Virus genome (UHGV): UHGV-0185920
Strand: one strand, 5' to 3'
DNA: 10,525 bases
Source: a virus
Shown here: piece by piece, positions 1-7,630 of the stretch
Position numbering within the stretch: position 1 is the stretch's first letter
Layout of the letters: every line of letters starts with the position of its first letter
Program-made: the position numbers and the translations under genes
Notes under the pieces: model-generated
What the model saw: the letters and a program-made list of their open reading frames with translations, nothing else
What the model was told of the DNA's origin: nothing
The model's database searches: none

Positions 1-34
1 AAACACACCATATATTGAACGACAAGTAAATCAC

Positions 35-73
35 ATGTCACTCCTAGAATGCGATATCTTTAAGGAGTGACAT
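35..73. terminator. Perfect 11-bp inverted repeat (ATGTCACTCCT / AGGAGTGACAT) with 17-nt loop; possible terminator downstream of the tailspike gene
   Basis: Stem arms at 35..45 and 63..73 read directly from the sequence; lies about 80 bp past the tailspike stop codon; moderately T-rich flanks on both strands. Function inferred. Confidence 0.3.
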
Positions 74-155
74 TTATCTATAACAAATTACTAAAACACC
101 CAAAAAACATAGACTTCAATTGGTAATATTGAGACTTAAGGTGTCAGTAAAATAG

Positions 156-2888
156 TTAATTTGCAAGCTTATTTTCCAGTTCTTCAATCCTCTTTATAAT
201 ATTTTTCTGACGTATACCTAATGCAGCAATCATTAGATACTGTAATTCATCATTTCTGAATGCATAGCGTTCTCCTGCTTCATGCGTAATAGTTATAGCC
301 TCACGAACAAGGTTACCTTCATCATCATAAACAGCTGGATCTGTATCTGTATATGCATCCCATCTGTCATAGCAGATCGCTCCGTATTTAAATGGATCAA
401 GTCCATTCTCTCTGAATATTTCCATTGCCCGTTGCACCGTAAGTCCGGCATGAAGTCTGGCATCAGCTCCCTTATTTTTTACACTATCAAGCCATTGATA
501 AAAACCAATTTCATCAACAAGAGCTAACCCAACCGCCTGCTCTTTATCGGAAAGAGTTCTGACTTCCGTTTTCTCTGTTGCATCAGATGTATTTATAGTT
601 GCAGTCCCTGCGTAGACCTGAGAAAAGCGGTTAACGGACCTTCCAAGTGATACCTGGTTATCAGTTGTTGGCCTTAATGTCGTCGTCGCCCATGTCGATG
701 TAGTATCTTTAGTCGCAGAAAATACTGTTACATTCCCCTGCTTAAGTCTGACGACACCTCCATCTGTAGAGGCAAGTATCAACTCACCAGCCGCAGATGG
801 ACAATCAGCAGCATGGATATCAATATAAGCACCACCCGCAGTATTCCCATCTTTAGAACGGAACTGCATACCTCGAAAGTTTGAGTCGAATACTGCTTTC
901 GTACTTACCCATGAATTATTGTCATGTCCGTAATCTGTATCAAACAGGTTAAGGTTATTTCCATAATTCAACTCGAGGGATTTGGTATACTCTCCAATGG
1001 CTTCGTCAAATATCGCAATAGTAAATGAACCGTGCTCACGGTTAAAGGCGATATCAGTTCCAGCATAATATTGATGCGCGGTTCCGGTATACGGATCGGA
1101 TTCTGCACCATGCACTGGATGGTTGCCAAGAATATCAGACAGGTTTGCTATTCCAAACAGATGCTTATTTCTGCGAGTATAATCACCTGATTTATATGTT
1201 GCGCCTGAATCCCATTCACCACTTGTCGCTGCAAGCGATGTTTTTAACCAATAAGACCTGTTTGTCGGAAGATTTCCCTTGTTATCACCAGTAACAATAC
1301 TTACCCAATTTTTACCACGATGGCTTACAACATCCCCTGCGCTTTTCCATACATCCATAGCACCACAGACAAGTTCATCACCTCTTATTGCCAGCCCTTC
1401 AGGCTCAAAGCTAACCGGAACTCCGATTTTAGAGTCAGAACCATTTAACTGAGTCTCTGTATAAAGTGATGCGGCAAGTGATACAGGAAATGAACGTATT
1501 AGCGTACCACCCATATCATAAATCTGTACTGTCCTTACGCATCTTGCAGGAACGCCACCCCAAATTGTGTAAATATATCTGCTATCTGATGTAATACCCT
1601 GAAGTGTTGCACCATACTGACCTTTACCACGGACAAGTGGAACAGGACCATTAATCGGTCTAACTTTCATTGGGTTAGAAGAAGATTCCACTTCTTTGCG
1701 ATCATATACGTATAAAAAGCGGCCAGTCCCAGCGTTTGATGTCGCAATTAATATGACATATCGCCCATCATTAGATACACAAATACTTGCCCGCTGCGCA
1801 AGGTTAATCAGATTATTATCACCCGGCTCACCAAATACTCGGTAATGAGTTATATCTTCAGCAGATGTTGATGCCCCTTTCCATTTTGTCTTTGAATACC
1901 CCTTCCCTCCTAGAGAGGAACCAGTCTCAGCAATTGTTGTTGTAAACAGATATAGTTCACCGTTCTCTATTGTGGCAGAAAGATCTGAACCGTGACCAAG
2001 AGGCAATGGCTCTGTAAATGTCACAACATAAAGAGTTGAACCATCGCTTGTATAGTGCCACTCACTGATCCTTGTGAGGGTGTCCGTTCCCCAGTTAGAA
2101 CCTCCAACCTGTTGAGTGATAAAAACCTTCTCAATACCTTCATGCCTTACACAAGCTATTCCCTGCAATGCATTTTGTGCATTCGCATATATAGTTGGCG
2201 CATTGATATCATCACCAAAATTCAGGGTCGCAAGTTTTCTTTGTCCAATGGAGAAACTTTGCATCGGCGGATTAACAGAAATGCGAACACCATTACTGAT
2301 TAGAACACCATCACCGGAGAAGCGTGAAATATCTATTTTCGATGCATCAACTATAAACTCACCAGAAGGCACATGAACCAAACCACTATTTCCTGCGCTA
2401 GATGCGGCGTCAAGAAAAGCCTGTGTTGAATCTCTATTCCCAGAGTCATCCGCCCCCCACCCGCGAACGTCTTTATCATCCCGCCATCGTGCAATCTGTA
2501 ATTCAGGGTATTTTTTAGCACCATCAGGATCTTCTAATTGCTGCCGTAACTGATCCGGGTCATACTTCAGCACATTCGGAAAATAGAACTGCTGCGTACC
2601 ATAAGCATCGTACACAGCCATAGAGTGTCCTTTCACAGTAACGAATTTGGCAATCTGTCCGTTATATACAGGATATCCAGCAGCATTGATAACGATTGGT
2701 TGCGAAACAGGAACGTGAGAACCATCTTCATTCTCTACATAAACCTGAATCTGGTTTTCAGGATTTACAGGGTCAGTGTCAATTTTACCGATATAAATTT
2801 TTCCATTAGCTACGGCTTTAAAAGAACGAGCCATAGTGAAGAGTTGAGAAGGCATCCCAATTACAACATTTGGAGTTATATCAGGCAT
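156..2888 (-). CDS. Tailspike protein: P22 gp9-like N-terminal head-binding domain, central receptor-binding/depolymerase domain of unknown specificity, C-terminal peptidase-S74-type intramolecular chaperone domain
   Basis: Minus-strand ORF 156..3041 in the track. From MPDITPNVV through [26 protein letters not shown] to LKYDPDQ the protein matches the P22 tailspike N-terminal domain as I recall it. Start chosen at ATG 2888 (AGGA 8 nt upstream); alternative ATG at 2897; the track Met at 3041 adds 48 residues with no homology. C-terminal SDATEK (Ser and Lys at i and i+5), HAGLTVQ and [10 protein letters not shown] resemble autocleaving tail-fibre chaperone domains. Confidence 0.9.
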
Positions 2889-3235
2889 ATTAGTCATCCT
2901 GTTTGAAAATTTAGATATTGAAGAAAACGGAATGACTGCAGACAAAGATGCAATTGTTTTGAAAAATAATCTTCTATTCACTTTAAAACTATGCAACATG
3001 AACAAAACAATTATTTTACAACAAGCAAGAATCTTGATCAACAGACATATGCTTTATGCGTTTAATGCGTCACTTAAAAATAACAAGTACTACTTTTATT
3101 CCTATCGTCCATGATTTTCATTTTCAAATATTATTAAATAACAATTCCTATTTATAATATCTGTCATTTAATTTGCTCCAGATACAAGGAATCGCTGCAG
3201 CGTGGCCGCAGTGATGCATTATTAATCAAATAAAG

Positions 3236-3250
3236 AGACCACAGTGGTCT
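3236..3250. promoter_or_regulatory. Perfect 15-bp palindrome AGACCACAGTGGTCT; candidate Mnt operator, abutting a candidate mnt promoter (TTGAGG 3253..3258, 17-bp spacer, TAAGAT 3276..3281)
   Basis: Palindrome read directly; it sits 64 bp upstream of the mnt start and its CCAC-N-GTGG core resembles the P22 mnt operator as I recall it. Promoter hexamers are weak matches picked by eye. Confidence 0.45.
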
Positions 3251-3313
3251 TATTGAGGATGCAACCAGCAGATAATAAGATGCCGCTCCACTCACAAAAG
3301 CGAGGCATCAAGA

Positions 3314-3565
3314 ATGGGAAGAGATGACCCGCAATTTAATCTGCGGCTACTTTACGAATTAAAGGAAAAACTAAAACAGCGAGCCAAATCCAATGGCCGC
3401 TCTCTTAATTCAGAATTAGTTCAGATAGTGACTGATGCTGTATCAAAGCCATCCAAAATTTCAGACTATCGAGACGATGCAGAACGCATCGCTGATGAGC
3501 AGTCCGAACTTGTTAGGAAGATGGTGTTTGATACGCTGAAGGATTTGTACAAAAAACCCACCTGA
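3314..3565 (+). CDS. mnt: Mnt repressor (P22 immI maintenance repressor, ribbon-helix-helix family)
   Basis: 83-aa ORF; GRDDPQFNLRL, NGRSLNSELVQIV and DAERIADEQSELVRKMVFDTLKDLYKK closely match P22 Mnt as I recall it, including the C-terminal tetramerisation region; GAGG 8 nt upstream of the ATG. Confidence 0.9.
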   Translation: MGRDDPQFNLRLLYELKEKLKQRAKSNGRSLNSELVQIVTDAVSKPSKISDYRDDAERIADEQSELVRKMVFDTLKDLYKKPT

Positions 3566-3583
3566 AGGTGGGTCCTATTTATT
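3551..3583. terminator. Bidirectional rho-independent terminator between convergent mnt and the lipoprotein gene
   Basis: 7-bp perfect stem ACCCACC (3556..3562) / GGTGGGT (3567..3573) with TGAA loop; A-run on the left (a U-run for the minus-strand transcript) and T-rich tract on the right. The mnt stop codon TGA at 3563..3565 lies in the loop. Confidence 0.6.
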
Positions 3584-4001
3584 AGTCTTGCTTTGTTGAT
3601 GGTATAAGAGATGCGTTTGCCTCTTTTGGCTTCAAGGTATACATCCCACCATTAAAAGGATCTACAGCAAGCCAACCAATTAACCCACCAAACACAAGGT
3701 TTCCACCAATATACCAGCCATTAGCATTGGCTTTGATTGGCAGGGTAACTGGTTCGTACCCATCCTTTTCCATAGTGATCTGGTAGCTCTTTTTGCCAAA
3801 ATAACTACCATCTGACTTGGCAAGAGTTACTCCTTGTGGGGTCTTACCTTGCGCAACAATCACGCCTGATTCGTCTTTTACCTTAAAGCTCGCACCGGAA
3901 GGATTGCTGTTCACTTGCACAAGCTGCGTTTCGTCACCAACAATAGTTGCGCACCCAGATAACAATATAGCGCCAGCAACGACGCCAATAATCCTCTTCA
4001 T
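3582..4001 (-). CDS. Putative lipoprotein with C-terminal glycine-rich (glycine-zipper-like) segment; function unknown
   Basis: ORF 3582..4013 in the track. Signal peptide with lipobox (MKRIIGVVAGAILLSGC) and glycine-rich GGNLVFGGLIGWLAVDPFNGG near the C-terminus. Start placed at ATG 4001 (MKR) rather than 4013; the 4001 versus 4013 choice is uncertain because neither has a strong RBS. Confidence 0.7.
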   Translation of the reverse strand: MKRIIGVVAGAILLSGCATIVGDETQLVQVNSNPSGASFKVKDESGVIVAQGKTPQGVTLAKSDGSYFGKKSYQITMEKDGYEPVTLPIKANANGWYIGGNLVFGGLIGWLAVDPFNGGMYTLKPKEANASLIPSTKQD

Positions 4002-4118
4002 ATCAATTTCCATATTTAAAAAACCGGAAACATCCTAATGACAAACCATTCAAATGTGAAGTAGGCAAAAGATGTTTACTTTTTTCATGGTATCCTGCTC
4101 AAAACTAAGGAGGTTGGC

Positions 4119-4508
4119 GTGAAGCAATTTCTTACTGCTATGTTCTTATTCATATCTTTTGGGGCTACAGCAGAGTGCTGGGTCGTTGGAGATATGCGCG
4201 GAATAAGCTATTCAGAACGAAATAATTTCCATCCGGAAGAAGATGGTTTTAGTGGAACATTCATCATTAAGACAAACGGTGAAGATGCCAGCATCACATA
4301 TTCTGGGACAGATGCGGGCGGCATGGCTTACAAAGCATTGTCTAAAAACTCCATCATAGGAATCGGCGCGAATGGCGAAACTCAACGCGTTATCGACTCA
4401 TGGGTAATACATCCTACTGGAACAGTTTTAATGTCAAAAACCATTTCCGGTTATAGAAATATGGATTCAACCAAAGCTTTTGTTGGAAAAGTAAAAAGAA
4501 AATGTTAG
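4119..4508 (+). CDS. Secreted (signal-peptide) protein of unknown function
   Basis: 129-aa ORF starting at GTG 4119 with a strong RBS (AAGGAGG 4107..4113, 5-nt spacer); N-terminal hydrophobic signal-like sequence MKQFLTAMFLFISFGATA followed by a soluble domain; I recognise no family. Confidence 0.7.
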   Translation: MKQFLTAMFLFISFGATAECWVVGDMRGISYSERNNFHPEEDGFSGTFIIKTNGEDASITYSGTDAGGMAYKALSKNSIIGIGANGETQRVIDSWVIHPTGTVLMSKTISGYRNMDSTKAFVGKVKRKC

Positions 4509-4599
4509 CGATTGAATCCAATTTCCCATACGTTACTGCTGTGTTGCCTCAGTAGCAAACAGCGGTCTGATGGCATTCGCAGCGTTATTTATCGCTCTT

Positions 4600-5646
4600 T
4601 CATAGGCTGGTGTTCAGAACGTTTACCGGAGTGGTATCAGCAAGAGAGGTGTTTACGTTAGCGTAAGCCTTCTCTTCTTTTGTCAGTGACGCGTCATCCA
4701 GTGCAATCGGTTTCGGCGTGATTTCGATGTGAGTACCATCGATCACACGGGTGATTGAGAAAGTCGCATCATCAGTTAGCACGTTCTTCGCCATCTGAGA
4801 CAGGAATTTCACACCAGTGAAACTGATTTTGTCGCCGCGCTTAAATCCGGTGGTGGAGGATACGGTCACCGTTGCAACACGGTTGTCGACGTTCTCTTTG
4901 TTACCATCGGTATCAAGGGTGTATGCCTGCGGCTTAAACTTCTGCGCACCAGAAACAGTTACACCAGTAGCGGTTGACTTGGTAACTGCCGGAAGTTTCG
5001 GTGAGCGAAGAATTTCATCAAAGCCAGCAATCTGACGCTGAATAGTACCGTTGCGATACGCTTCTTCAGGAACGCGACCGAAGATGTCACCATCTACCAG
5101 GTTGCGGCCTGCTTTGCGGTAATCGTCAGGGTTCAGGAAGTAACTGATGCCCATGTCGCGGTTGAGTTCGCGGGAGAACATCAGGCGCTCTGCATCAGAC
5201 ACAAAATCCCAGCCAGACAGGCCAGTAGATGGACCAATTGCGCGGGTATCGTGAACAACAAGTGAGCCCATTTCAGTTGCCTGTTTGGCAATTGCTGACT
5301 CAATGTTATTCGCCAGTTTTTTAGCGGATGCCTGGATGCGGCGACGGTAAGAACGCTCATCACGCAGGTCATCTGCACGAAGCTCGAAGAAATCGTTATC
5401 CGGATCGCCCATGTTGCATTTCACGGAGAGTTCCAGAATCCCAGTTGCGTTGCCAGTTAAATCCCAGCCAGTCTGGGTTGGCGCTTCCTGCTCAACAGGC
5501 ATCCACACGGTGTTGCTTGAACGCCGCATGGATTCTGCCGGAGGGGTGTATTTTGTCACTTTGGACGCCATTGGCGTCAGATTCTGGACGGTTTCGATGA
5601 TTTCATCCAGAGCATACGTGACCAGTTGACCTTCATTTAATGCCAT
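4600..5646 (-). CDS. Coat (major capsid) protein, P22 gp5-like, C-terminally truncated (348 aa versus about 430 aa for P22 coat as I recall)
   Basis: [83 protein letters not shown] and [10 protein letters not shown] match P22 coat; homology stops within a few codons of the stop at 4600. AAGGA RBS 8 nt upstream; the start overlaps the scaffold stop (TAATG). Could equally be annotated as a pseudogene. Confidence 0.85.
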
Positions 5647-6557
5647 TATCGAATTCCTTTATTCAGTTGCGCCTTGAGCTTGCGGTACGTCTCTACATCC
5701 CTTTTGTTTGCTGCCGCTTCCATCTGCTTTTCAATCGCAGAGATATTTGCAGCAACAGCGTGTCCCTGAATTGGTTCATCAGGTAACGGGGCTTCTGAAA
5801 CAGGCTTGGCTCGAGGCTTGAGAGTTAAACGTTCTGACAGTCGAGTGAGTTCAATCAGCGCGGATTGCCCGTCCATCGCCAGCAACTGGCGTGTTTTTTC
5901 AGGATTAGCACCAAGGTGATACATGAGAGCAGCGGATTTCTCCGGGAAGAGGCGCATGATGTCGGCACCGACTGCTGGCGGCACCAGTTGCATGAATGCA
6001 TCCTCTTTCTCCTGATAGTCAGGGATATTGAGCTTTTCCGCTGCGTCGTAGTGCTTACGGGCTGCCTCGACGTATTGCGCTGATTGCTGGGTGAACTCCT
6101 GAGTTTTGCGACCCTGCTCGGCGACAGCCTGGCTTCGTGCGTCCATAGCCTTGATCTGCCATTCACTGTTTGCCTGCTGGAAGGCAGCCAGTGCGCGGCT
6201 CTGGTCATAGTCGTACTTAGCCAGTGCATCTTCGGAAAGATAATCGTTAGGGTCTGGTTGTTTTGGTAACTCAGGGTTCACCCGCAGGTGCTCCGGCAAC
6301 TCTCCACGCTTAACCGCTTCCATCTGCTGCTCAAGCTCACGCTGGCGTTTGCGTTCGATGCGGCGACGGGCAAATTCAGCATTAGTTGCCGGGTCTTGTT
6401 TTGGTTTCTCATCGTCTTTCAGGACAATCTCGAAGCCTTCTTCCTGACCTGCGTTGTCGTTGGCATTATCGACAACTAAGCCATCAGCAGATGCCGCTGC
6501 ATGATTGCCGGGCAGGGTTAATTCTTCAGAAGCCTGAATGTCGGTGGTTTGGTCCAT
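5646..6557 (-). CDS. Scaffolding protein (P22 gp8-like), apparently full length (303 aa)
   Basis: [62 protein letters not shown] and the C-terminal coat-binding region ([16 protein letters not shown]) match P22 gp8 as I recall it; it sits immediately upstream of coat with a TAATG overlap. Confidence 0.9.
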
Positions 6558-6570
6558 GATTAACTCTCTC

Positions 6571-7311
6571 TTATTGAGGTGTCTCGGCTACTCCGCCGGA
6601 GGGGATTTGAACTTGACGCATAAGATTCGCGAAATCCATGCGTTGTGAATGAGTCTGGTCTGCATCTTTAAGAAGCAGCTCAGCGTTAGCACGAGCATCT
6701 TTGCTGCGCTGTTGCTGGAATTGACCTACTAGCTTGAGGTACTCACGCAGTTCTGCCTGCTTGTCGAGGTCCATATTGTTGAAGATTTCTGCAATCTTCG
6801 CGGCGTTGAGTTGGTTTTGGGCTTCAACCTTGGCGGCTTCAACCTGAATCTGCGCCTGTTGGTTCTCTGCCTTGAGCAATTCAGCCTGACCTTGCAGAAG
6901 GATACCCTGCGCCTGAATTTGCTCTGCTGATGGCTGCTGCGGCTGCTGTTGAGCCTGCTGTACCATCTCCATCTCTTCAGGTGTTTCTGGTTTCTTCAGC
7001 CCCATCATCACCAGTTGCTTGTTCGCGTAACGCCCGGTAAGGTGAAACGCGACTTCAGCAGCACCAGTAAATGACTTACCAAGCTGGTTACCAGCCATAA
7101 AACATCGCTCTGGATAGTCATGCCCGGCGTCGATGAACTCACGCTGTTTGCTGTATGGCGTAAATTCATATACCGGAGAAACAGGAGAAGAGTTCTCGGT
7201 AAATATCTCGCTTGAGTCATCAATGCGATATCGGGCGCGTCCTGACGCTTCAACGATTTTATGGTGGATGGAACAGAGTGAAGAAGCCAGAAAATCGCTA
7301 ACCAGCAACAC
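6571..7311 (-). pseudogene. In-frame fusion remnant: large terminase N-proximal fragment (Walker A region, about 7027..7170) joined to portal protein C-terminal fragment (about 6571..7026)
   Basis: The upstream part contains [48 protein letters not shown], a large-terminase ATPase Walker A region. The downstream part is a Q/E/A-rich helical tail ([25 protein letters not shown] ... ETPQ) ending 13 nt before the scaffold start, where the portal C-terminus lies in P22. The first 47 track residues show no homology. Confidence 0.7.
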
Positions 7312-7630
7312 TCAAGAGCTTTCAACGGCTCTTTCATGGTTATCTGAATTCATCATAAAGAACGCCAACCACAAATTCGTTCAGGTTTGGGGGAATGGAG
7401 CATCATTTGACTGCGTTATTCTCCGCAACAGTTATTCGCTGACAGGGCAGCCAGTTCCGTGGCAGTGGTGGAATGACCGCGACGTAAGAACAATCGTCGA
7501 ACTTGGGAAGGTAATAGGATTCGACCCTAAGCGAGATATGCCATTCAAAGGAACTCGCCACAACGCGCTTGATGATGCCATTCACCAAGCCAAATACGTT
7601 TCAGCGATCTGGAAAAAGTTAGCTAAATAA
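7133..7630 (+). pseudogene. DnaQ-like (DEDD) 3'-5' exonuclease, N-terminally truncated (Exo II and Exo III motifs present, Exo I region missing)
   Basis: WGNGASFDCVIL (Exo II-like) and HNALDDAIHQAKY (Exo III-like), plus WWNDRDVRT, match the small phage exonuclease family; no DxE-containing N-terminal segment is found in any frame upstream; the 5' end overlaps the terminase fragment on the opposite strand. Confidence 0.65.

Follow-up and report, generated by a model that had tools for sequence, protein, structure and literature searches.

A stand-alone mnt cassette of distinct specificity beside the tailspike gene of a defective P22-like prophage in Escherichia coli TUM10008

In phage P22 the immunity I (immI) region is located between the injection/moron genes and the tailspike gene (gene 9), and mnt is oriented divergently from the tailspike. 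Transcripts from the P22 antirepressor promoter Pant continue toward gene 9, and in lysogens P22 Mnt protects the prophage repressor by silencing the antirepressor of superinfecting P22. A shorter arrangement, in which mnt is found beside the tailspike gene without arc or ant, has been described as the ant moron of phages ST64T, ST104 and L (Villafane et al. 2008, PMC2629481; Zaworski et al. 2021, PMC8022706). Among relatives of the locus analyzed here, the nearest one with experimental data is phage Gally, which resides as prophage 1 in AIEC strain LF82 (Misson et al. 2023, PMC9928086).

The sequence analyzed, termed the window, is a stretch of 10,525 nt (UHGV-0185920) that corresponds to positions 492237–502761 of the E. 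coli TUM10008 chromosome and represents a defective prophage. The TUM10008 prophage is approximately 12 kb in length and lacks gene 23/Q, the lysis genes, c2 and most morphogenetic genes. The late promoter is gone from this remnant together with gene 23/Q and the lysis genes, as the first-pass annotation had assumed. The features of the region are as follows.

156–2888, minus strand: tailspike gene, 910 aa (RefSeq CDS WP_098704038.1; Pfam; AGGA Shine-Dalgarno)
2889–3154, minus strand: AT-rich leader, or spacer (pairwise BLAST, tblastn/blastn locus survey, JEP4 annotation, 11-sequence alignment, E. coli genome count)
3013–3041, minus strand: candidate sigma-70 promoter toward the tailspike (consensus scan, weight matrix, 11 variants)
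3155–3206, minus strand: recombination scar consisting of the old P22-type gene-9 leader, its RBS (CTGGAGCAAATTAA) and four codons (alignment with P22, Gally and MS 16-3)
3207–3466, plus strand: type-B cassette with operator, mnt promoter and DNA-binding half of mnt (BLAST against MS 16-3, annotation, codon-level comparison)
3236–3250, no strand: candidate type-B Mnt operator AGACCACAGTGGTCT, with its core GACCACnGTGGTC at 3237–3249 (position, homology, covariation)
3253–3281, plus strand: Pmnt, TTGAGG (3253–3258)-17-TAAGAT (3276–3281) (positional homology to annotated P22 Pmnt, weight-matrix scan)
3314–3565, plus strand: mnt, 83 aa (Pfam, identity to P22 Mnt, dN/dS)
3550–3576, no strand: predicted bidirectional intrinsic terminator over the mnt stop codon (fold, annotated ε34 homologue)
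3582–4001, minus strand: lipoprotein-like moron, homologue of ε34 gp15 and Gally GALLYPH_14 (annotation, Gally RNA, weak PEGA domain match)

The locus is a stand-alone mnt-only immunity I cassette of P22-like phages, and it belongs to a specificity class distinct from that of P22, here called type B. It shares with P22 immI a homologue of Mnt, a palindromic candidate operator with a CCAC-n-GTGG centre 10 bp from the −35 hexamer of Pmnt, the genome position, the divergent orientation of mnt, and the gene-9 leader sequence. Unlike P22, the window has no arc, ant, sar, Arc operator or Pant.

The mnt gene had been called intact, and the 83 aa open reading frame displays both expected Pfam domains: Arc (PF03869) at residues 3–51 (E-value = 5.1e-20, 71.5 bits, cutoff 20.4) and Repressor_Mnt (PF11423) at residues 53–80 (E-value = 2.3e-17). 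These two domains, an N-terminal ribbon-helix-helix and a C-terminal Mnt tetramerisation helix, place the protein in the Mnt repressor family of the Arc/MetJ ribbon-helix-helix superfamily. The identity with P22 Mnt is 72% over the full length and residues 53–83 are almost the same, however the recognition strand is PQFNLR, as in Arc, where P22 Mnt has PHFNFR. The ST160/SE1-type Salmonella Mnt alleles are 88–89% identical to the window protein, whereas Mnt of phage L is just 68% identical and has a different C-terminal half. As a family, mnt is under strong purifying selection, with a median dN/dS of 0.09 between E. coli-type and Salmonella-type alleles. Comparison of the window copy with Gally gives 0.44, a value that comes from three non-synonymous and two synonymous changes. 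Three substitutions (P13L, which sits at the start of helix A, G51D and K67R) are specific to the window and are found in none of 67 other type-B copies; because of these the window's Mnt may be impaired. Two other copies that carry the AT-rich spacer (L056 and L057) have premature stop codons in mnt.

The absence of arc and ant, reported in the first-pass annotation, holds. A tblastn search with P22 Arc and Ant matched solely the ribbon-helix-helix domain of mnt itself; there was no match to Ant at E ≤ 1e-3 in the window and no suitable arc open reading frame of at least 20 aa in the interval between mnt and the tailspike. A 23-codon minus-strand frame that had been singled out there does exist (3148–3219), but it is spurious and spans the old gene-9 leader. 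The arc-ant junction that encodes sar is missing from the window, and no Rfam match to sar was found between 2700 and 4700 at E ≤ 1, where the only matches of any family were two at chance level. Thus none of arc, ant, Pant and sar, which together characterize a complete P22-type immI region, is present, and both the gene content and the operator/Pmnt type are those of the mnt-only ant moron of ST64T, ST104 and L. The tailspike start (2888) and the mnt ATG (3314) are separated by an interval of 425 bp, all of which is taken up by leader, scar and control region. The comparable interval in Salmonella mnt-only phages is 135–146 bp. The greater length in the window is due to addition of the AT-rich leader and the scar of an older tailspike start.

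The arc/ant-less state is the standard one for this Mnt lineage. Both genes are absent in 64 of 64 IMG/VR loci whose Mnt is at least 88% identical, the mnt-only layout is found in the viable phages Gally, L, ST64T, ST160 and SE1, and the cassette is present in 113 of 5,426 complete E. coli genomes. Intact members of the lineage keep the late operon, and the earlier description of the locus as a rewired circuit finds little support. The identical operator (AGACCACCGTGGTCT) is also found in complete immI regions, at loci L090, L143 and L154, which encode a PQFNLR Mnt as well as arc and ant and have a Pant with TTGACA. These resemble Erwinia phage Midgardsormr38 and not coliphages, and no complete type-B region was detected in the 5,426 E. 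coli genomes at megablast sensitivity or in the 64 type-B loci. With regard to hosts of the arc/ant-bearing type-B regions, a protein-based scan of genome contigs gave no match and a DNA pattern scan gave eight chance matches in unrelated MAGs. Phage ε34 was considered as a complete type-B region and rejected; it carries the P22-type operator and Mnt. The operator and Mnt of phage N7 are of yet another type.

The flanks of the cassette indicate how it may have arisen. The window shares with ε34 and MS 16-3 the gp15-like lipoprotein gene, the terminator and the 3′ half of mnt, and with MS 16-3 also the tailspike gene and AT-rich leader (99.7% identity), however both have a P22-type operator, arc and ant where the window has the 260 bp type-B cassette. 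Comparison with MS 16-3 shows a clean swap: the 260 bp of the window are replaced there by 1,437 bp that comprise the P22-type operator, arc, ant and the 5′ half of mnt, and the flanks are 99.3–99.7% identical. The state of the window was probably reached by homologous cassette exchange rather than by local decay, in which one crossover would lie in the leader of gene 9 and the second near codon 51 of mnt. The scar retains the first four codons of the P22-type tailspike, ATG ACA GAT ATT (ATG at 3167–3165), visible as a 21 aa open reading frame, MTDIINR.... Gally is 97.5% identical to the window in the control region and mnt, and has the same downstream lipoprotein moron and terminator. It differs in being a complete inducible phage with a late operon, and in having another tailspike body.

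The perfect 15 bp palindrome noticed at 3236–3250, AGACCACAGTGGTCT, was confirmed and occurs once in the window. It had been placed directly upstream of the tailspike; it is upstream, but 348 bp separate it from the start of that gene. A palindrome of this kind is by itself unremarkable in 10.5 kb, where two palindromes with 7 bp arms are observed against 0.72 expected from shuffles; the expectation for the 425 bp interval is 0.03. Its significance is due to homology and to its location at the position of the P22 mnt operator. Exactly 10 bp separate the palindrome centre (3243) from the −35 hexamer of Pmnt downstream of it, and the spacing in P22 is identical. It has the same base as the P22 17-mer at 10 of 16 non-central positions, and the P22 operator differs from it at ±5 and ±7 (GACCAC in the window, GGTCCAC in P22). 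The 10 bp spacing is also found in the JEP4 type (TACCGAAACGGTA) and in the arc/ant-bearing type-B loci. Phage L displays the same operator type and Pmnt layout, AGACCACGGTGGTCT-TA-TTGTGG-17-TATGAT, which compares with AGACCACAGTGGTCT-TA-TTGAGG-17-TAAGAT in the window. Among 35 distinct type-B control regions most keep the 13 bp core GACCACnGTGGTC, and five singleton copies show one or two point changes in it. The operator keeps a fixed distance to Pmnt, whereas between it and the tailspike start there are about 60 to 355 bp, depending on the region.

The recognition strand of Mnt covaries with the palindrome: PHFNFR is found with GGTCCACnGTGGACC, PQFNLR with AGACCACnGTGGTCT and AQFHLR with TACCGAAACGGTA. 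PQFNLR-type Mnt proteins that are just 50%–68% identical overall come with the same palindrome as the window. Nothing usable was found in the literature on the operator contacts of Mnt residue 6, therefore no residue-to-base assignment is made. Position, conservation over the 35 regions and covariation of the recognition strand support the palindrome as the probable cognate operator of Mnt, and the likeness to the P22 mnt operator suggested earlier is upheld on these grounds. The type-B palindrome is present in one copy in the complete genomes of Gally and of L, and neither contains a second operator, as a hidden Mnt target, at up to two mismatches. The palindrome was also considered as an intrinsic terminator of leftward transcripts and this was rejected; it would form a weak hairpin of just −6.4 kcal/mol (z = −1.45), and Salmonella alleles do not keep the T-run.

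Alignment with P22 immI shows the operator and Pmnt at homologous positions, but the Pant hexamers are gone. The annotated P22 Pmnt, TTGAGA-17-TATCAT, is positionally homologous to TTGAGG-17-TAAGAT, which is the best plus-strand site in the window (weight-matrix score 11.7) and is at the same offset in all 35 distinct type-B regions with scores of 10.5–11.7. The sigma-70 weight matrix recovers both P22 promoters, Pant (16.7) and Pmnt (14.3), although a consensus scan of this kind is blind to activator-dependent or alternative-sigma promoters. Where P22 has the Pant hexamers, the homologous sequence is GCGGCA-17-TGCATC, which lacks the key A2 and T6 of the −10. By the same matrix, no strong Pant with the operator at its start site overlaps Pmnt on the opposite strand in the window or in the 35 type-B regions. 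Near the operator, no leftward site in the window scores above 5.9, and the best leftward sites of the 35 regions have a median score of 5.9 and reach 9.3 at most, compared with 16.7 for P22-type regions. A score of 5.9 is at background; there are 374 sites of at least 5 in the 21 kb that the two strands of the window make up. The Mnt-controlled leftward promoter proposed at the operator in the first-pass annotation is not borne out by these values.

The tailspike has a P22-type head-binding domain, a divergent receptor-binding body and a C-terminal S74 chaperone domain; residues 1–113 match Pfam Head_binding (E-value = 2e-65) and residues 768–829 match Peptidase_S74. The start at 2888 is that of RefSeq and is supported by the match of profile positions 1–113 of Head_binding to residues 1–113. 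An AGGA Shine-Dalgarno sequence is located 8 nt before ATG CCT. The AT-rich leader travels with this tailspike allele. It is not found in Gally, L or ST64T, is present in JEP4 and, downstream of ant, in MS 16-3, and occurs in 44 of 5,426 E. coli genomes; no annotated feature lies within it in any genome. The leader contains TTGATC (3041–3036), a 17 bp spacer and TAAAAT (3018–3013), with a weight-matrix score of 13.9; the predicted start near 3006 would put about 118 nt of leader ahead of the gene. In 11 variants neither hexamer changes, whereas 6 of the 17 spacer bases vary and the spacer length is constant. On the other hand 6.8% of dinucleotide shuffles of the AT-rich segment score as high, and the chance of 12 invariant columns at background variability is about 0.12. 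The comparison is suggestive of TTGATC-17-TAAAAT as a candidate tailspike promoter. A structured 5′ leader was rejected because the 3006–2870 segment folds no better than shuffles (z = −0.62), and a stem that would sequester the Shine-Dalgarno (2892–2904 with 2925–2937) appears in the MFE structure but is unsupported.

On the other side of mnt, the minus strand of the terminator has a 10 bp stem (−14.2 kcal/mol) followed by U6, and its homologue in ε34 is annotated as Rho-independent. As predicted from its fold, this terminator would shield mnt and the tailspike against leftward transcription, except under antitermination. The Gally data (PMC9928086) show the behavior of a closely related locus in an intact phage. 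The GALLYPH_14 moron is highly expressed in Gally lysogens. Gally mnt RNA ranges from background to a log2 value of 9.0, is at background in LB stationary phase and is induced 40-fold in macrophages; its detection in lysogens is taken as Pmnt activity. Tailspike RNA exceeds that of the upstream late genes by as much as about 12-fold and rises with mnt RNA, and the ratio of tailspike to GALLYPH_14 RNA shifts from about 2%–5% to about 31% between conditions. Thus some late-independent transcription of the tailspike exists in the module, and a local tailspike promoter is therefore conceivable. Since Gally has no AT-rich leader and its tailspike RNA still rises, a start in or near its 146 bp mnt-tailspike interval is possible, although no consensus promoter is visible there. 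Co-induction of mnt and tailspike RNA in macrophages is independent of the lytic program. A Δmnt strain of LF82 Gally (MAC2774) showed no survival phenotype in the one assay done.

The Mnt-B gene, the 13–15 bp palindrome and the sigma-70-type Pmnt form one conserved unit. The best explanation of the whole is an mnt-only cassette with an autoregulatory operator, in which the tailspike is not driven from the operator region, and we assign this reading a probability of about 0.55. Bound to the palindrome, tetramers of Mnt-B would determine how strongly their own gene is transcribed. Complete genomes of relatives contain no other site of this kind, thus the cassette would have no other cis target. 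In intact relatives the tailspike would be read mainly by antiterminated transcription of the late operon. In the TUM10008 remnant there is no late promoter and a strong terminator is present upstream of mnt, so any tailspike expression would most likely start at TTGATC-17-TAAAAT (3041–3013). About 200 bp separate this site from the single operator, which probably puts it outside steric control by Mnt.

Two other readings give the operator a role in tailspike transcription. A leftward promoter derived from Pant, at or near the operator and repressed by Mnt, may have become the main driver of the tailspike. The location of the operator between mnt and the tailspike as the sole copy in the phage genome would fit this, as would the extension of P22 Pant transcripts toward gene 9, the parallel rise of tailspike and mnt RNAs in the Gally lysogen independent of the late operon, and a weak leftward −10-like hexamer (TATTAT or TATGAT, 3277–3272) kept in E. 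coli and Salmonella alleles. However the hexamers homologous to Pant are degenerate and the leftward score is at background, while arc/ant-bearing loci with the same operator do keep TTGACA. The operator is also at a fixed spacing to Pmnt and not to the tailspike, and co-induction of the two RNAs is unlike the prediction of simple repression. This promoter is unlikely. Alternatively, operator-bound Mnt-B together with convergent transcription from Pmnt may act as a roadblock that limits leftward read-through, from the late operon or the moron, into the tailspike. Every upstream transcript that enters the tailspike has the operator and an antisense mnt transcript in its path, the shifting tailspike/GALLYPH_14 ratio in Gally fits regulated read-through, and a possible effect of Mnt and Arc on late transcripts that read through into the tailspike was suggested by Villafane et al. 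(PMC2629481). Yet a strong terminator is already present upstream of mnt, the window has no late promoter to attenuate, and a ribbon-helix-helix tetramer is not known to halt an elongating antiterminated polymerase. Attenuation of this kind is the least probable of the readings considered.

The remaining alternatives concern what Mnt-B does, if anything. Orphan Mnt-B may act in trans and silence the antirepressor promoter of incoming phages with the same operator, which would protect the resident prophage repressor and leave the cis operator for autoregulation only. Strong purifying selection on a gene with no cis target beyond its own promoter is consistent with such a guard, as are the complete immI regions with an identical operator and the established role of P22 Mnt in lysogens. 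Against this, the complete type-B regions are of the Midgardsormr38 type and absent from the E. coli genomes and type-B loci searched, Gally mnt RNA falls to background in LB stationary phase, and deletion of mnt was without phenotype in the assay done; we consider protection in trans rather improbable. The cassette could also be an inert leftover in this remnant, with Mnt impaired and nothing dependent on it. The prophage is defective, the three substitutions are found in no other copy, dN/dS against Gally is raised, and other spacer-bearing copies have premature stops. But the open reading frame, promoter hexamers and operator are all intact, the family is clearly constrained, and relaxed selection cannot be read from just five differences, so that inertness is doubtful. 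Autoregulation without control of the tailspike is the reading retained.

The finding is an ordinary one in that mnt without arc and ant next to the tailspike has already been reported. What is added is that the orphan Mnt proteins are a specificity class of their own with a matching operator, that mnt is under strong purifying selection, that the autoregulatory geometry has been kept while the antirepressor promoter has been lost, and that arc/ant-bearing and arc/ant-less versions have been swapped as cassettes between identical flanks. These results narrow the question of what the orphan Mnt does. As a speculation with a small chance of being correct, the type-B mnt-operator unit and the tailspike may be an environment-responsive divergent pair that is used by the host from prophages, including defective ones, with Mnt-B tuning the tailspike expressed from the prophage, an enzyme that cleaves O-antigen, or guarding against invaders that carry an antirepressor. 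If true, this would account for the retention of an intact tailspike, mnt and the morons in broken prophages such as the present one.

The mnt–tailspike locus is, by homology, an example of the known mnt-only immunity-I cassette, in its E. coli type-B form, joined to a tailspike allele with its own AT-rich leader, in a defective prophage. The window is identical across its 10,525 bases to positions 492237–502761 of the E. coli TUM10008 chromosome. RefSeq annotation and the open reading frame list show an approximately 12-kb P22-like prophage remnant adjoining thrS, with the following features:

156–2888, minus strand: tailspike gene, intact
3314–3565, plus strand: mnt, annotated as an "Arc family" gene
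4600–5646, minus strand: coat gene without its 3′ end, cut at residue 348 of about 430
6571–7311, minus strand: fusion open reading frame, large terminase (N-terminal part) and portal protein (C-terminal part)
in the remnant: two small genes (morons)
in the remnant: scaffold gene
in the remnant: a few early-left genes
just past the window edge: integrase gene, split by IS1

Gene 23/Q, the lysis cassette, c2 and the late promoter are absent from the remnant. The first-pass annotation was correct that the late promoter is gone, yet this is a trait of a broken prophage. Deletion scars are present at 4600–7311. The truncated coat gene abuts the moron region at the point where similarity with the MS 16-3 prophage stops (about 4615), and the fusion open reading frame overlaps a 3′-5′ exonuclease gene on the opposite strand (7133–7630, plus).

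The mnt gene is intact, as had been proposed. Its 83 aa product displays 72% identity to P22 Mnt over the full length and matches both the Arc ribbon-helix-helix (RHH) domain and the Mnt C-terminal domain (Pfam). Pairing E. coli-type with Salmonella-type alleles (84 pairs with dS > 0.15) gives a median dN/dS of 0.09, which indicates that mnt is under purifying selection. Compared with the usual E. coli type-B protein, the window protein carries P13L, G51D and K67R, which are absent from all 67 other type-B copies. Residue 13 is a helix N-cap position (helix A) and is Pro, Ser or Thr in every other Mnt/Arc relative seen; thus the three unique substitutions may impair the window's own Mnt. Two other copies (L056 and L057), likewise beside the AT-rich leader, show a premature stop at mnt codon 53.

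The absence of arc and ant also stands. In tblastn searches of the window, P22 Arc and Ant match solely the RHH domain of mnt itself, and Rfam shows no sar RNA. The 23-codon open reading frame noted earlier (3148–3219, minus) is a spurious frame. A scan of IMG/VR with the window Mnt gave 80 loci. In the 64 loci with Mnt at least 88% identical, i.e. the group labeled type B, every Mnt starts MGRDDPQFNLRLP, and arc and ant are missing throughout. In the remaining 16 loci Mnt is more distant and displays the P22-type N-terminus MARDDPHFNFRMP, and arc and ant are present. The type-B control region with the mnt 5′ half is found in 113 of 5,426 complete E. coli genomes, and the mnt-only layout is found in the viable phages Gally, vB_EcoP-720R6, L, ST64T, ST104, ST160 and SE1. 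This gene content is already in the literature (Villafane et al. PMC2629481; Zaworski et al. PMC8022706). The arc/ant-less state is thus a trait of the lineage and was not lost locally, and the proposal of a rewired circuit finds no support in these sequences.

A pattern scan of IMG/VR gave three contigs (L090, L143 and L154) with AGACCACCGTGGTCT between a PQFNLR-type mnt and arc-ant. These have a complete immI (mnt, arc, ant) that retains the TTGACA −35 hexamer of Pant; among phages they are closest to Erwinia phage Midgardsormr38 (79.7% identity across arc-ant). Since complete type-B immI regions exist, the orphan cassette is best seen as a type-B immI after loss of Pant, arc and ant. The orphan repressor could possibly be a guard against ant-bearing invaders, however this is unsupported for E. 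coli, where no complete immI with a type-B operator was seen in 5,426 genomes at megablast sensitivity.

The 425-bp interval between mnt and the tailspike gene can be fully assigned by comparison with P22 (annotated record BK000583), Gally, L, MS 16-3 and EC24:

3313–3207: control region with Pmnt and the palindrome, by homology to P22
3253–3258 and 3276–3281, plus strand: Pmnt, TTGAGG-17-TAAGAT, homologue of the annotated P22 Pmnt TTGAGA-17-TATCAT
3206–3155: P22-type gene-9 leader and ribosome-binding site, then ATG ACA GAT ATT (ATG at 3167–3165)
3154–2889: AT-rich leader that accompanies this tailspike allele
3041–3013, tailspike strand: candidate promoter TTGATC-17-TAAAAT in the AT-rich leader, weight-matrix score 13.9

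The palindrome AGACCACAGTGGTCT (3236–3250) had been described as directly upstream of the tailspike. It is present and occurs once in the window, but is 348 bp away from the tailspike start. Palindromes with 7-bp arms are not rare per se (2 observed in the window, 0.72 expected); the other perfect 15-bp palindrome, GACGCCATTGGCGTC at 5564–5578 within the coat gene remnant, fits chance. The center of the palindrome (3243) is 10 bp upstream of the Pmnt −35 hexamer, the same spacing as the P22 operator center, and alignment with P22 immI places both palindrome and Pmnt at homologous positions. A simple, approximate sigma-70 weight matrix (built from published consensus frequencies) ranks the annotated P22 Pant (16.7) and Pmnt (14.3) first, each on its own strand. 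The top plus-strand site in the window is the Pmnt homologue (11.7), and it is at the identical offset in all 35 distinct type-B control regions (10.5–11.7). Most of these regions keep the operator core GACCACnGTGGTC, in which the central base is free to vary; five single copies have one or two point changes in the core. The flank is fixed on the Pmnt side and variable on the tailspike side. The complete Gally and L genomes each have one operator copy and no second one within two mismatches. In addition, the palindrome covaries with the Mnt recognition strand: PHFNFR pairs with GGTCCACnGTGGACC, PQFNLR with AGACCACnGTGGTCT (even among proteins only 50–68% identical) and AQFHLR, of phage JEP4, with TACCGAAACGGTA, all with the 10-bp spacing to the −35 hexamer. 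Conservation, single copy and covariation make a good, if indirect, case for the palindrome as the cognate operator of Mnt, as first proposed, and suggest that the selected feature is the operator–Pmnt relation, i.e. autoregulation.

The window and the MS 16-3 prophage are 99.7% identical at 1–3206 and 99.3% identical at 3467–4615, whereas MS 16-3 has 1,437 bp (P22-type operator, arc, ant and P22-type mnt 5′ half) in place of window positions 3207–3466 (260 bp). One crossover is in the gene-9 leader and the other near codon 51 of mnt, the border of the DNA-binding domain and the shared tetramerization helix. Operator and repressor DNA-binding half therefore travel together, with or without arc/ant.

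JEP4 (L089, 3930–4006) displays a third Mnt specificity type without arc/ant. Its protein starts MMYSKYDEAQFHLRL, its palindrome is 10 bp upstream of TTGTTG-17-TACGAT, and it carries the AT-rich tailspike leader of the window; upstream, in the late direction, are KilA, Rha and a C2-like repressor gene, an unusual make-up for this moron region. In P22 (5040–5190), AAAATTCACCGTAGCCA(C/T)GCT is found twice between the ant terminator and gene 9, around a hairpin-containing insert; MS 16-3 and N7 have one copy. The P22 repeat looks like an insertion or duplication footprint in the gene-9 leader.

An Mnt-controlled leftward promoter had been suggested as the main driver of the tailspike, but sequence support for it is lacking. 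The best tailspike-facing site within 150 bp of mnt is at background in the 35 distinct type-B regions (median 5.9, maximum 9.3), and the Pant hexamers are lost, the homologous positions reading GCGGCA and TGCATC. A good intrinsic terminator over the mnt stop codon (10-bp stem, −14.2 kcal/mol, then U6) faces leftward transcription, and without Q/gp23 antitermination little such transcription should pass it.

ATG ACA GAT ATT, the first four codons of the P22-type tailspike, is now a scar. The AT-rich leader beyond it is absent from Gally and L. The viable phage JEP4 has it, as do MS 16-3, where it follows ant, and 9 of the 64 type-B IMG/VR loci; of 5,426 E. coli genomes, 44 carry it, with no feature annotated there. 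Among 11 leader variants (90–100% identical) both hexamers of the candidate promoter are invariant, while 6 of the 17 spacer bases vary at constant length. A real promoter would be expected to vary in this way, however the statistical backing is weak: when this AT-rich DNA is shuffled by dinucleotides, 6.8% of the shuffles reach its score, and 12 invariant columns have a chance probability of about 0.12. The candidate is about 200 bp from the only operator and would be beyond occlusion by Mnt.

The tailspike frame is open 5′ of its start (2889–2981, minus), reading (G/A)TG AAT AGA AGA TTA TTT TTC AAA... in frame with MPDIT. This 31-residue extension displays a twin-arginine-like motif (RRxFxK) with a hydrophobic stretch after it; it opens with GTG in the window and with ATG in most leader variants. 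Several differences among variants are synonymous (AGA to AGG, ATA to ATT, AAA to AAG), and the 110 nt are free of indels. The extension lacks a preceding Shine-Dalgarno sequence and a Pfam match, and the codons are as expected of AT-rich DNA; the extension may thus be due to chance. The inverted repeat AGTCATTCCGTTT / AAACAGGATGACT (2892–2937, minus-strand RNA), found in the minimum free energy fold, would pair the tailspike Shine-Dalgarno region, and the whole leader folds no better than shuffles (z −0.62).

Expression data are available for Gally, prophage 1 of the AIEC strain E. coli LF82 (Misson et al. PMC9928086), which shares 97.5% identity with the window over the control region and mnt. 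GALLYPH_14 is the moron upstream of mnt on the strand of the tailspike gene.

RNA levels in Gally, log2(fpkm+5), mean of two replicates (S1 table of PMC9928086)
Gene: LB overnight; medium 1 h; medium 6 h; macrophage 1 h; macrophage 6 h
mnt: 3.7; 5.7; 7.0; 9.0; 8.4
tailspike: 3.9; 4.9; 5.65; 6.7; 7.8
GALLYPH_14: 5.5; 10.0; 10.4; 11.0; 9.45

The mnt values indicate that Pmnt is active in the lysogen. The terL, portal and injection gene RNAs fell, and the injection gene that closes the late-gene block, right before the two morons, is at 3.6–4.15 in all conditions (PMC9928086). A Δmnt strain matched the wild type in macrophage survival (PMC9928086). Tailspike RNA can therefore exceed late-gene RNA about 12-fold with no contribution from the late operon. 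Constant leak-through at the terminator fails as its source, since the tailspike/GALLYPH_14 fpkm ratio shifts from about 2–5% to about 31% across conditions. As Gally does not have the AT-rich leader, there must be some tailspike-directed start or regulated read-through in or near the 146-bp interval, where no consensus promoter is visible. These data are the sole line favoring part of the earlier idea and do not bear on control by Mnt; mnt and tailspike RNAs climb in parallel, contrary to simple repression. GALLYPH_14 (homologue of the lipoprotein-like gene at 3582–4001 of the window) and its divergent neighbor show strong expression (log2 about 10–11) in lysogens, both growing and intracellular. 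Both are just under the authors' LB-stationary cutoff, and Gally was thus scored as without morons (PMC9928086).

The observation that led to this analysis is confirmed and its interpretation partly supported, the list of parts and the naming of the operator being correct. Most likely, mnt would be autoregulated by way of a single operator near −46 of Pmnt, and transcription of the tailspike would not depend on this operator.
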